Shown: piece by piece, positions 35,301-60,470 of the stretch | Position numbering within the stretch: the stretch's first letter is position 1 | Layout: every line of letters begins with the position of its first letter | DNA from: Eledone cirrhosa | Lineage: Eukaryota | Reading direction: 5' to 3' | Length of the DNA: 64,000 nucleotides | Assembly: GCA_964016885.1 (NCBI GenBank) | Contig: OZ024743.1 | Coordinates: 65,782,001-65,846,000 of the forward strand | Program-made: the position numbers and the translations under genes | The notes under the pieces: generated by a model | What the model saw: the letters and a program-made list of their open reading frames with translations, nothing else | Databases searched by the model: none | Told to the model about the DNA's origin: nothing

Positions 35301-35900
35301 AGGTATCTAGTCTTTAATGCGAAGATATACCAACGATAATCAGCAGAATACTGATGAAGGACATTCTTGTTTCTTGGTCTATTTTTATTCATATGTTCAT
35401 AATCGCAACAACGCAGCACGCCATTTTTCATTCACATACATTTTTTCCCTTCGCTGTGGTTTGTATTTTTTCTGTCACCTTACTGCTTTCCTCTTTCTCT
35501 CTCTCCCCTTCTCTCTCCTTCACCTCTTGCTTTCCCCCACTCCCGCTGCTGGTCACTCACTCTCGGCTGGCCCCTTCCTCACACTTTCACTCACTCACTC
35601 TCTGCTACTCCTTCTCTCTCACTTCCTCCCGCCTGACCTGCTTGAATTTCTTTCCTCTCTCCGTCTATTTCTTCTCGTCATTTGATTTGTCGGACTTAAA
35701 CCCACAAGATTCATTGACTTGTCTCTCTTTTCCTCTCTTTACGTTGCATTACTACCATGTTGTTTGTTTCCTTTCCTCTGTCCCGATAACTTAATTTAGT
35801 TATCGCTCGCACTAATTTTAGGTATCTAGTCTTTAATGCGAAGAAATACCAACGATAATCAGCAGACTACTGATGAAGGACATTCTTGTTTCTTGGTCTA
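35301..35900 (+). mobile_element. Non-coding 519-bp unit with about 80-bp terminal direct repeat, in (TA)n; related circularly permuted copy at 38500-39085
   Basis: 35301-35380 is repeated at 35820-35900. The pyrimidine-rich body and the CTGATGAAGGAC motif are shared with 38500-39085. Confidence 0.75.
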
Positions 35901-36463
35901 TATATACATGATTGCTGCCCCTCGTTATCGAGTATGGCCACTGCACGATATAACATTATAAATAATTATCAGTTAATGCTATCGTGCAATGCTTGTGCGT
36001 GAAGATATTTTTAAAAGTGAGGAAAGACTGTGCACTTAGCCAATCCCACTCTCTGAGTGACAATAGCTATAACCAGAAAAGAGGAAAAGACCAACATCAT
36101 CGGTAACTACTGAGCCGCAGCTTTTATGTCGGAGTTATCCCAGTTTCCTGAGTTGCCTTCTAGAAGAATACCATAACAAAGGCTAGGGATCCTTTACTCC
36201 CAGCGGTTTAACCGCATGATCGGGTGTCCAGCCCGACTATTTCTATGTCCCTGCGCATATACATACATATGCACACATGTATATACATATTTACACAATT
36301 TTGGATGGCCATTGACTCTCATGAGTTCTTCCGCCCTTTGTGTACAAGTGTATATGCAGTTATTAGATACATACATACAAGCTGGCTGCCCCCTCGTTAT
36401 CGAGTATGGCCATTGCACAAAAAAAAACATAATAATAACAATAACGACAATAATAATAATAAA

Positions 36464-36645
36464 TGTTTCTACTTTTGGCACAAGGCCAGCAAATACCCAG
36501 TACATTACTGGTACTTTATTTTATCGACCCCGTAAGGATGAAAGGAAAAGTTAACTTCGGTGGGATTTGAAATCAGACCGTAAAAAGACGTAACTATGCT
36601 AGAAAGCATGGCGTCCGACCCTCTACCGATTTTGCCAATTCACCA
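36464..36645 (-). mobile_element. SINE family 1 (head partly duplicated at 36944-37000)
   Basis: Consensus match on the minus strand. Confidence 0.88.
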
Positions 36646-36713
36646 CAATAATAATAATTATTTTTTTATTTTATATACATACATACATACATACATACAT
36701 ACATACATATATA

Positions 36714-36804
36714 CGAGGTGTGTCAGAAAAGTTCTAGGACCGATGTCACAAAAGATTTATTTCAAACCCAAACTTCGCACTAAGAGTTTTCTGACAACAC
36801 CTCG
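36714..36804. mobile_element. 91-bp Tc1/mariner-type MITE with TA target duplication
   Basis: TA-CGAGGTGTGTCAGAAAAG ... GTTTTCTGACAACACCTCG-TA terminal inverted repeats. Confidence 0.8.
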
Positions 36805-37160
36805 TATATATATATATATATATATATATATATATATATATATATATATGTATACACACACACACACACACATATATATATATATATATACATATATATA
36901 TACACACACACACACACACACACACACATATATATATATATATAACTATGCTGAAAAGCATGGCGTCCGACCCTCTACTGATTCTGCCAATTCACCGCAA
37001 TAATTATTATTATTTTTTTATTTTACATACATACATACATGCATATATATATATTGTTATTTTTTTTATTTTATATACATACATACATACATACATACAG
37101 ATATATATGTATATATATATATATCCACCAGGGATGGTATTCTGTCATTACAACAGCAGA

Positions 37161-57500: not shown

Positions 57501-57977
57501 AACAGACAGACTATATTAAATCTTTGTTGGTTTTATTCAATGAACAAATATAATTATTTCTGAGGTCAGCATACGACCTATTTTCATCCTTAAAATAATC
57601 TTTCATTCATAATATTATTTTCCATCCAAAACTGTAATCTACCTTCCTCTACCCATAAATTAAGGTTCTTTTACTACTATATTACTATCTTGACCTTCAC
57701 TATCTTTCTATTGGTCAATTCAAAACCTGTTCCCAAACAGACCTATTTTATTGAATCTTTGTTTTTTTCAATAAACAAATATCATTATTTCTGAAGACAG
57801 CATATATATGTGTAGGTATGTATATTCCCTCTGATAGTTTGTATAAATATTTTACATATATCTATAGAATATGCATACCAACACTAACACATATATATCC
57901 TAGAAACGATCGTAAAATGATGAATTTTTTAATATAAGGAACTGTTTCTTTGTTTATTCATTACTTTATTAATTTAT
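54525..57977. mobile_element. Giant fold-back Naiad-like PLE remnant: about 1.55-kb inverted arms (54655-56202 / 56416-57977) carrying GIY-YIG and 3' UTR
   Basis: CNCRNKANCPLKGNCLVNNIAY..SYIGATSNKFKVRFNTHKHSF..CRLCSQE..LNKRQELIISCNH, with the C-terminal part encoded on both arms; the terminus is shared with 40030-40172. Confidence 0.93.
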
Positions 57978-57992
57978 ATATATATGTATATA

Positions 57993-58995
57993 TCATAATC
58001 TATAAAGCTCAGTGTGTGGTCATGCTCCTTCGTTATAGAAATCTACGATATAGAATTTCTTCAATTGAAATTTACAATTCATCATTCGAAATAGTTTCGA
58101 TTGCGTCTTGACGCAGATAATTTTTTCAATTTCACCCACAATTACGCAAAAAATAGATAAAACTCAATATTTTACGATTTTTCTCTCTCATTTAAACTGC
58201 TGAACTCTTTCTTCTACCATTCAAAATCTATACAACTTCATACTTCCTGCTACTTTCTCTTTCCAAGCTTGATGGTGATACTGTCCGTTCACACCACTCC
58301 CTACTGTCTTAAATTTAGAAAACACATATCCTCTATGAGGTTACTAAACCTGCTAGAAACAGCAGCTACCTCTCCCCCATATCACACCCCTCCCCACACC
58401 ACTCACTACTGTCTTAAATTGTGAAAACACATATCCTCTATGAGGTTACTAAACCTGCTAGAAACAGCAGCTAAATCTCCCCCATATCACACCCCTCCCT
58501 ACTGTCTTAAATTTAGAAAACATATCTCTCTATGAGGTCACTAAACCTGTTAGAAACAGCAGCTAACTCTCCCCCGTATCACACCACTCCCTACTGTCTT
58601 AAATTTAGAAAACACATATCCTCTATGAGGTCACTAAACCTGCTAGAAACAACAGCTAACTCTCCCTCATATCACAACCCTCCCTACTGTCTTATATTTA
58701 GAAAACACACAGACAACCATGCAGAACAACCCAATCGCAGCTCTGTTGTTCGGCTGGCATCGTCTACGCGCGTGTTGCGCAAGTACTGTGAAACAATAAA
58801 TTTCAATACTTTTTTGCACAGAGATAATATCCATAGGCGAAACTACAACTGTCACTGCTGGCGCAGCTCATGCTCCCAGGTCTGCAATTCATTCATCCAG
58901 TGCCTGGCAGACAAAAAAGTGCTGCCATAAAATTGGTGGTGCAACCTAACTTTGGTAATTTAATGACCCCGAGCAACGCCGGGCTTTAATGCTAG
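57993..58995 (+). mobile_element. Non-autonomous Helitron-like element with internal tandem repeats of about 90 bp (58290-58710)
   Basis: 5' TC after A; 3' GC-rich hairpin CCCGAGCAACGCCGGG (58968-58983), then CTAG followed by T; lies in (AT)n. Confidence 0.8.
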
Positions 58996-59412
58996 TATAT
59001 ATATATACATATATATACATATATATATATATATATATATATATATATATATGTATGTATATATATATATATATATATATATATATATATATATATATAT
59101 ATATATATATATATATGTATGTATATATATATATATATATATATATATATATATATATATATATATATATATATATATGTATGTATATATATATATATGT
59201 ATGTATATATATATATATATATATATATATATATATATATATATATATATATATGTATGTATATATATATATATATATATATGTATGTATATATATATAT
59301 ATATATATATATATATATATATATATATATATGTATGTATATATATATATATATATATATATATATATATATATATATATATATATATATATATATATAT
59401 ATATATATATAC

Positions 59413-60470
59413 ACAATATATTGAGAAACACACAGATACATGCGGACACACACATATACATGAATATATCCACATCCATCCTTGAGTTAATGGTGCCAAC
59501 CTTAACAGATGTTGCTCTATGAATAACTGGGACAAACCAATCCGAATGGATTAGATTGAACCAGTATCAGAGCTAAAAGTACATTATGAAGAGAGAAGAA
59601 ACATTTAGATATAATTTGTAATAAGATGTATCATACCTAAACTGCTTCTAGATTCCTCGACTACGTAGTTTCGTGGCATAATCAAAAACAATACATCACA
59701 GAGATATAGAGCCTTTGTGAGGTCTGCCGACTTATCAAGAGGATACCTCATTTTACTAGCTTCAAAGAACACGTCTATAAGATGTGAGATAGAATCCGAA
59801 AAGGCGGAGGGGGAGTCAGTCACGTGATACAACGGTCAAGAAACAGAGCTAAGCCCCTTATAACCCTGAAAAAAATACCACGGAGGTGGAGGGGGTATTT
59901 ATATCGAGGCCGTAGAAGAGGTGGTTAAGGAGGCTAGAAGTATGAGTAATGGCAGCTTTCCAGCAGTCACTACACTTCAAGGATTACTCGACCAGGGGGA
60001 GTTATAAACAATATATTGAGAAACACACAGATACATGCGGACACACACATATACATGAATATATCCACATCCATCCTTGAGTTAATGGTGCCAACCTTAA
60101 CCGATGTTGCTCTATGAATAACTGGGACAAACCAATCCGAATGGATTAGACTGAACCAGTATCAGAGCTAACAGTACATTATTTTTTCAGGGTTATAAGG
60201 GGCTTATCTCTGTTTCTTGACCGTTGTATCACGTGACTGACTCCCTCTCCGCCTTTTCGGATTCTATCTCACATCTTATAGACGTGTTCTTTGAAGCTAG
60301 TAAAATGAGGTATCCTCTTGATAAGTCGGCAGACCTCACAAAGGCTCTATATCTCTGTGATGTATTGTTTTTGACTATGCCACGAAACTACGTAGTCGAG
60401 GAATCTAGAAGCAGTTTAGGTATGATACATCTTATTACTAATTATATCTAAATGTTTCTTCTCTCTTCAT
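59413..60470 (-). mobile_element. Retrozyme-like unit: 595-bp monomer with terminal redundancy plus inverted copy; hammerheads at 59654-59743 (-) and 60313-60402 (+)
   Basis: Direct repeat 59413-59587 / 60008-60182; inverted repeat 59586-59856 / 60181-60470; UCCUC-UUGAUAA-GUCGGCA..UGCCAC-GAAA-CUACGUAG-UC-GAGGA. Confidence 0.85.

Follow-up and report, generated by a model that had tools for sequence, protein, structure and literature searches.

A repeat-rich window of 64,000 nt in the 3.0-Gb genome of Eledone cirrhosa (assembly GCA_964016885.1, contig OZ024743.1, positions 65,782,001 to 65,846,000) holds members of three non-coding families, here called units 1, 2 and 3 (U1, U2, U3), whose copies end at fixed 3′ sites against (TA)n tracts. 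We consider it quite probable that all three were written into the genome by borrowed reverse transcriptase-endonucleases of Penelope-like elements (PLEs), and that the U1 family carries a conserved hammerhead ribozyme with its blocks in a permuted order, which is predicted to self-cleave. The units are copies of three unrelated, abundant and dispersed families: the first look at the genome returned 1926 candidates for U1, 3246 for U2 and 3141 for U3, and for each family 40 candidates were scored and 30 loci fetched. Phases within a monomer are numbered from the predicted ribozyme cut site.

Self-comparison bears out the periods of 519, 538 and 595 nt read in the first-pass annotation of this stretch, each monomer being followed by a partial repeat of its own start. 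The repeated part amounts to ∼82 nt with 2 mismatches in U1 (35301/35820), 141 nt at 92.9% identity in U2 (46755/47293) and 175 nt with 3 mismatches in U3 (59413/60008). The units are also essentially unrelated in sequence, as had been said, since four of five cross-family comparisons score inside the range of 30 shuffles and the fifth, U1 against reversed U3, is marginal and probably compositional (77, shuffle maximum 72), and they are non-coding, with longest Met-started frames of 146, 56 and 48 aa for U1, U2 and U3; the 146-aa frame is of low complexity and has no match in Pfam. A further copy at 38500-39085, which had been taken for a circular permutation of U1, is something different. It is related to U1 (score 202, shuffle maximum 118), but because it does not reach the length of one unit and is ∼90% identical to a sister subfamily of 620 nt we regard it as a truncated copy of that subfamily (U1b), spanning phases 142-620 plus ∼100 nt more, without terminal repeat and with the family's fixed 3′ end. 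The first reading had missed the inverted arms of U2 (46461-46756) and U3 (60182-60471) and the block order of the U1 ribozyme. No copy in the window has two intact tandem ribozymes, because the repeated part of U2 and of U3 excludes the ribozyme and the upstream copy in U1 is damaged.

The ends of the copies carry the signature of PLE insertion, namely fixed 3′ ends at (TA)n, variable 5′ ends and inverted 5′ arms. With the window copies and a duplicate array (L016) excluded, the 3′ ends of the main arms of U1 lie at phase 87 in 12/28 copies and at phase 134 in 6/28, and fall past the end of the query (phase 75); those of U2 lie at phase 265 in 25/29 and at 181 in 2/29, and those of U3 at phase 251 in 24/29, counts that for these two families are partly set by the query ends. 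The 3′ ends nearly always run into (TA)n. Inverted arms accompany 7 of 28 U1, 16 of 29 U2 and 18 of 29 U3 copies, and end at a second fixed site, phase 181 in 13 of the 16 U2 arms and 79/81 in 12 of the 18 U3 arms. A sample drawn by the U1 ribozyme pattern behaves alike: (TA)n begins 61-131 nt past the cut in 43 of 54 motif rows (the rest are six upstream tandem members, three other rows and two without (TA)n), and upstream of the motif the same monomer goes on for 47-637 nt in 45 of the 54. Tandem loci with 2-3 ribozymes spaced by 502-637 nt exist; two intact tandem ribozymes are found at the U1-clan loci L092, L112, L118 and L140, and some U2 and U3 loci span the cut twice. At one locus (L088:1351-2272) the main and inverted arms of U3 meet at the predicted cut and form a palindrome centred there.

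PLEs are known for partial tandems, for a tail at one end, for inverted 5′ copies and for (TA)n as a target (PMC8557442), features that our units share with the Naiad clade (PMC8557442) and with Poseidon PAc (Frangieh et al. 2024, PMC11167929). The tail of PLEs arises from two internal start sites of reverse transcription (PMC11167929); it is described as 30-40 nt long, whereas the tails of our units measure 47, 84 and 172 nt and the units have no open reading frame (ORF). The first-pass annotation had supposed non-autonomous, PLE-mobilised units copied slightly more than once around; PLE-type ends and the lack of an ORF agree with this, and copy lengths across the three families are 1.01-2.31 units. 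The random permutation of starting points that it named as support for circular templates is not seen, since each family has two fixed sites for its 3′ ends. Fixed ends do not refute circles, because reverse transcription by PLEs sets out from fixed internal positions (PMC11167929), and they remove the start-point argument for them.

The ribozyme of U1 has the cleavage-site block first, then the GAAA block and then the CUGAUGA block (S-G-C). In the intact window copy GAAA occupies 35843-35846 and CUGAUGA 35870-35876, with outer helices b, c and d and an extension of stem III. Genome-wide the S-G-C pattern has 12,220 matches (6104 + 6116) and the reversed control 0; scans of metagenome and viral contigs with this family-specific pattern gave 0 matches each. 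We aligned 58 rows (alignment A1: 2 from the window and 56 locus copies, subfamilies limited to 14 rows, leaving out rows that lack the upstream helix, two rows that carry deletions and a few that nearly duplicate others). In this alignment 92.5% of cells are paired, against 26-44% in slid controls, and 236 cells are changed on both sides of a pair, against 70.6 in shuffles (reached in 0 of 500). Double changes occur in five of the six pairs of stem I, likewise in five of six of the stem III extension, and in five pairs of hairpin c. While the helices vary, the core nucleotides (CUGAnGA, GAAA, UH) stay constant or almost constant. The core of the U1 family is thus conserved, and it is predicted to self-cleave. 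A looser S-G-C pattern gave 35 matches against 15 in controls, and further S-G-C families with other stem III sequences are seen in 11 of 30 fetched loci having at least 3/4 stem III and at least 5/6 stem I pairs. At least two, possibly three, older non-coding families (L179-L184, L205, L213, L216; L191, L194, L198, L204, L207, L208, L211, L214, L215, L219; L199, L201, L206) are unrelated to U1 and have S-G-C order and a kink-turn (k-turn) consensus, with differing stem III.

Such a k-turn consensus, as defined in PMC5061560, breaks stem III of U1: a 3-nt bulge is followed by G.A and A.G between two helices. Among the 58 rows G.A is present in 55, the second position is A.G in 41 and A-U in 16, and the pair after them is U.U in 35, U.G in 11 and C.U in 7; the U1 subfamily of the window has the 2n = U variant. 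U.U at that position is a mark of box C/D k-turns. Box C/D k-turns need protein for folding (PMC5061560). Compared with known k-turns (standard, Kt-23 type; PMC5061560), the predicted one of U1 differs in lying within stem III of a hammerhead. For three of four single units the predicted fold contains a stable local hairpin-like duplex made up of stem III and its extension. In our model stem III would be extended through the k-turn, whose bend may bring the far end back to the ends of stem I and helix d; helix d would stack on the single pair of stem II, and the closed three-armed cage so formed would stand in for the contact between loops I and II, so that a single strand could fold with its blocks in S-G-C order. 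Covariation is what the alignment records directly, and the fold-back and the cage are a model built on it.

Ribozymes with this block order have been described as type SGC (HRIMA-1 and variants), a non-circular permutation found in metatranscriptomes and, according to Eckert et al. 2023 (PMC10085705), in no genome of a known organism; PMC13725137 only cites Eckert on this ribozyme type. U1 shares with them the S-G-C order with its conserved core, covarying stem I as well as stem III, and a short linker from stem I toward the GAAA strand (PMC10085705). It differs in having ∼12,000 genomic copies within a retroelement, where type SGC is known from metatranscriptome finds only (PMC10085705), and in three further features: a stem II of one pair, a four-way junction that uses upstream sequence, and the k-turn extension of stem III. 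Because it lacks a stem II helix we treat U1 as a variant and not as a member of HRIMA-1. In the literature covered, which is partial, no S-G-C, non-circular or k-turn hammerhead is reported from an animal genome or from Naiads.

Naiads are said to lack canonical hammerheads (PMC8557442), and the supplement of the same paper flags eight of them as HHR_half_core. Read by eye, the 3′ ends printed there for the octopus consensus sequences Naiad_Obim and Naiad_Ovul suggest the U1 fold, with the same hairpin loop, a k-turn, and all helices changed yet paired; in Naiad_Ovul ∼117 nt separate the cut from (TA)n, and the end of Naiad_Esco shows no clear fit. The partner of U1 may therefore be a Naiad-clade PLE, and those of U2 and U3 would be canonical hammerhead-bearing PLEs. 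A Naiad partner is put forward as an inference, since none was located in the genome and cephalopod Naiads are described as old remnants (PMC8557442): the Naiad-type stem III pattern occurs at 6 loci, all of one short non-coding family, and the back-translated endonuclease motif has 0 matches. A bolder proposal, which we think rather unlikely, is that the Naiad clade and its non-coding parasites have their missing ribozyme in the S-G-C k-turn hammerhead, which would be switched on by the host protein 15.5K/Snu13; this would bind the box C/D-like k-turn and close the cage, so that monomers of 500-640 nt circularise and a Naiad retrotransposes them.

It should be noted that a number of results weigh against the reading given at the outset. 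The 35-pair structure was drawn from the very sequences counted in A1, whose rows are related to one another. Double-changed cells number just 2 in helix d and 10 in helix b, the latter all in one clade, while stem III proper is 100% paired without any double change. By pairs instead of cells, 19 have a double change against 16.1 in shuffles (20 of 500), and the measure of further pair types is reached in 353 of 500, so that two of five measures are weak. A classical stem II is absent: it is reduced to the lone pair 10.1-11.1, which 41 of the 58 rows form and which is A.A in the window U1, and both strands pair with upstream segments to give a four-way junction. Outside the ribozyme, the query-dependent 3′ ends of U2 and U3 belong here as well, as do the 5′ ends, which lie within 2 nt of the cut in 0/28 U1, 2/29 U2 and 1/29 U3 copies (3/86), and the indels, which show no enrichment at the cut. 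The circular fold of U1 is no better than shuffles (–57.5 versus –56.8 ± 6.3 kcal/mol). All that three autonomous PLE families have in common with the units is a low-complexity stretch and neighbouring U3 copies, and no Naiad ORF was located in the genome by searches with the stem III pattern, the looser pattern and the endonuclease motif. Cleavage of U1 stands as a prediction, and a route through circles as one of two candidate routes.

The S-G-C order might be a feature of the strand only, if the U1 ribozyme acts as a strand-swapped dimer or across two monomers and the connectivity of its core is canonical. PLE and metazoan hammerheads are described as working in dimers (PMC4209133; PMC7229834), covariation is blind to whether pairing is intra- or intermolecular, and the weak stem II would be at home in such an arrangement. 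Nevertheless we hold it unlikely, as stem III with its extension folds locally in most of the predicted single units, the conserved k-turn consensus is what a one-strand fold-back would need, and natural SGC ribozymes cut in cis (PMC10085705). Less probable still is that cleavage has been lost and the structure is retained for binding of the PLE protein or for its priming. It does sit just upstream of the fixed priming sites, the 10.1/11.1 mismatch (A.A or C.A) is present in 17 of 58 rows, and the genome shows no trace of cleavage; on the other side, core nucleotides are near-invariant while the helices change, unrelated families included. A by-eye tally of distinct TA-flanked 5′ junctions, made on the first 100 of 1805 overlapping matches, also speaks against a mere binding element, with 12 of 27 falling in 6 of the 31 positions around the cut (p ∼0.003), although 7 of these 12 are confounded by TATA microhomology.

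How such units could spread may be pictured as follows. A locus with more than one unit would be transcribed into a template longer than a unit, either a circle ligated after ribozyme cleavage or an uncleaved multimer. Judging from the observed ends, the PLE enzyme would nick (TA)n and begin complementary DNA at either of two fixed internal start points that lie 60-265 nt beyond the cut. The copies themselves pass upstream over the cut site and halt at a variable point, from which their terminal redundancy results, and the inverted 5′ arm often begins at the other fixed site. A cleaved linear monomer copied with template jumps finds no support in the 3/86 5′ ends near the cut and the lack of indel excess; with neither a pile-up of 5′ ends nor scars there, the template must have been continuous across the site. 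Repeat pairs are closer within a locus than between loci in 29 of 41 U1, 29 of 32 U2 and 28 of 36 U3 comparisons, which would follow from repeated reading of a single monomer and also from any PLE route that renews the tandems. Folded as circles, U3 reaches –156.7 kcal/mol (–130.2 ± 5.5 in shuffles) and U2 –143.3 (–129.6 ± 8.0), with 12 shuffles for each unit, that of U1 included. Contigs of two sequencing runs matching 35740-35900 contain relatives of the motif and no joints, and are not used as evidence.

Between circle and multimer we see the chances as about evenly balanced. That the uncleaved tandem transcript is the template, with no circles and with ribozymes that only trim RNA ends or act late, comes a little short of an even chance in our estimate. 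A PLE inserts uncleaved RNA in vitro and ribozyme mutants leave insertion unaffected (PMC11167929), the cut site bears neither 5′-end excess nor scars, loci with 2-3 ribozymes exist, and U1 RNA is not highly self-paired in its predicted fold. Against it, the repeats of one locus have been homogenised anew and the copies of a tandem have subfamily-specific ribozyme variants in common, so a step at the level of the monomer is needed somewhere; moreover, circles are known from metazoan retrozymes that carry type I hammerheads (PMC7229834). That the units are plain 3′ ends (pseudo-long terminal repeats) of autonomous PLEs is very improbable. Fixed 3′ ends, tails and inverted arms match those of autonomous PLEs, and PLE coding fragments lie within 1.5 kb at 23 of 140 loci. 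Upstream of the units, however, one finds the same non-coding monomer head to tail with up to three ribozymes, and in the two cases of a same-strand upstream PLE that were read (L116, L120) a (TA)n tract separates PLE from unit. Among the loci examined no copy is joined to a PLE ORF, and none has an ORF with reverse transcriptase and GIY-YIG domains between the repeats. The queried autonomous PLEs include one with intact 775-aa reverse transcriptase and GIY-YIG frames and one ending in (TA)n; Pfam matched RVT_1 and GIY-YIG in an intact 775-aa copy and missed the short fragments of the window. Of the marks that the first-pass annotation attached to this alternative, fixed termini are thus present and linkage to a PLE ORF was not found. 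Since no PLE ORF is attached and no sequence is common to the units and the three PLE families, the units are non-autonomous and retrozyme-like.

The first-pass annotation had assigned a hammerhead core to each unit. A core is indeed present in all three, but that of U3 lies on the minus strand with UUGAUAA and that of U1 is not of canonical type. In U2 stem I has 7-9 bp, stem III 7 bp, and positions 10.1-11.1 are an A-C mismatch. Both the U3-A8 core variant (UUGAUAA for CUGAUGA) and the palindromic stem-loop III of U3 have been described in PLE hammerheads (PMC4209133). Metazoan non-LTR retrozymes are, like our units, non-coding, hammerhead-bearing, tandem or partial-tandem, and coexist with PLEs (PMC7229834; bioRxiv 10.64898/2026.07.22.740005); the low GC content of the units, 0.40-0.43, is also as in these elements, and their size falls within the 51-972 bp reported for PLE-derived retrozyme units (bioRxiv 10.64898/2026.07.22.740005). 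Unlike metazoan retrozymes, copies mostly span 1.0-2.3 units, have inverted arms and fixed 3′ ends and do not form long arrays, and the units are larger than the 170-400 nt circles known in invertebrates. U2 and U3 have the type I hammerhead of non-LTR retrozymes and are ordinary new families of that known kind. The U1 family, with its S-G-C order, lacks a type I hammerhead and is weakly self-paired in its predicted fold; it would work like a retrozyme, yet its block order places it outside the non-LTR retrozymes and we do not file it as a member.

Should U1 cleave, it would be a non-circularly permuted hammerhead present in ∼12,000 copies in a cellular genome, in which stem II is rebuilt and a k-turn forms part of the architecture. 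Searches with descriptors of types I-III, and Rfam as well, overlook ribozymes of this type; of 241 Rfam matches on the window (E ≤ 1), the 150 listed include no hammerhead and are AT-repeat noise. The statement that Naiad PLEs lack hammerheads would, if U1 cleaves, be overturned, and the role of the ribozyme for PLEs would be reopened. Three parallel non-coding families with fixed priming sites also offer short natural substrates for the question of circle versus multimer in PLE reverse transcription. The features of the units are collected in Table 1.

Table 1. Units, predicted ribozymes and arms in the window
Feature	Position	Strand	Description
U1	35301..35901	+	519-nt monomer and ∼82-nt repeat of its start; PLE-type insertion behind a (TA)n tract
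U1 upstream ribozyme copy, damaged	35301..35357	+	GAAA changed to GATA, outer helices gone, one stem I pair broken
U1 intact hammerhead, S-G-C order	35778..35884	+	Cut predicted at 35826/35827; cleavage is a prediction
Predicted k-turn in U1 stem III	35818..35856	+	Non-bulged strand 35818-35820; 3-nt bulge and GA 35851-35856
U1b	38499..39085	+	5′-truncated copy of the 620-nt sister subfamily; ends in (TA)n
U1b S-G-C ribozyme	38935-39041	+	Cut predicted at 38983/38984
U2 main arm	46755..47431	+	Phases 119-538, then 1-259 of the 538-nt monomer
U2 type I hammerhead	47099..47183	+	Cut predicted at 47174/47175
U2 inverted 5′ arm	46461..46756	-	Phases 418-538, 1-181; ends in (TA)n 46416-46459
U2 second ribozyme copy, in inverted arm	46628-46710	-	
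U3 main arm	59413..60182	-	Phases 72-595, 1-251 of the 595-nt monomer; ends in (TA)n 58996-59411
U3 type I hammerhead	59654..59745	-	Cut predicted between 59659 and 59658
U3 inverted 5′ arm	60182..60471	+	Phases 380-595, 1-79; ends in (TA)n 60469-60595
U3 second ribozyme copy, in inverted arm	60312-60402	+	

Further hammerhead-like cores of canonical order are present in the window at 28743 (-), 32256 (-), 42271 (-), 42348 (+), 45497 (-) and 45628 (+); those at 45497 and 45628 lie within a fold-back inverted repeat, and that at 32256 in the 3′ region of a PLE fragment (32538-33071). Broken PLE coding fragments of several families are found at 30321-31474 (-), 32538-33071 (-), 55893-56258 (-) and 61834-63250 (+). 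The family of the last has many copies elsewhere with an intact 775-aa frame of reverse transcriptase and GIY-YIG, and that of 32538-33071 has (TA)n at its end and frames longer than 1000 aa. Near-perfect inverted repeats between (TA)n tracts (37848-38199, 38257-38488, 40976-41422, 54655-57977) are likely PLE-type inverted insertions of other families.

The first 14,874 nt of the window (1-14874) are an array of a 23-bp satellite with ∼653 copies at 92% matches. A dispersed repeat of ∼200 bp, sometimes in tandem and by its appearance similar to short interspersed nuclear elements, occurs at 15989-16447, 23836-24071, 25716-25931, 27759-28190, 33285-33747, 36455-36668, 43995-44221 and 60895-61075. 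Broken frames that look in translation like reverse transcriptases of non-LTR retrotransposons lie at 19156-19476 (-), 23104-25554 (-) and 51607-52407, and a tandem repeat of 93-105 bp in 3-4 copies (58285-58709) stands just upstream of the (TA)n tract of U3.

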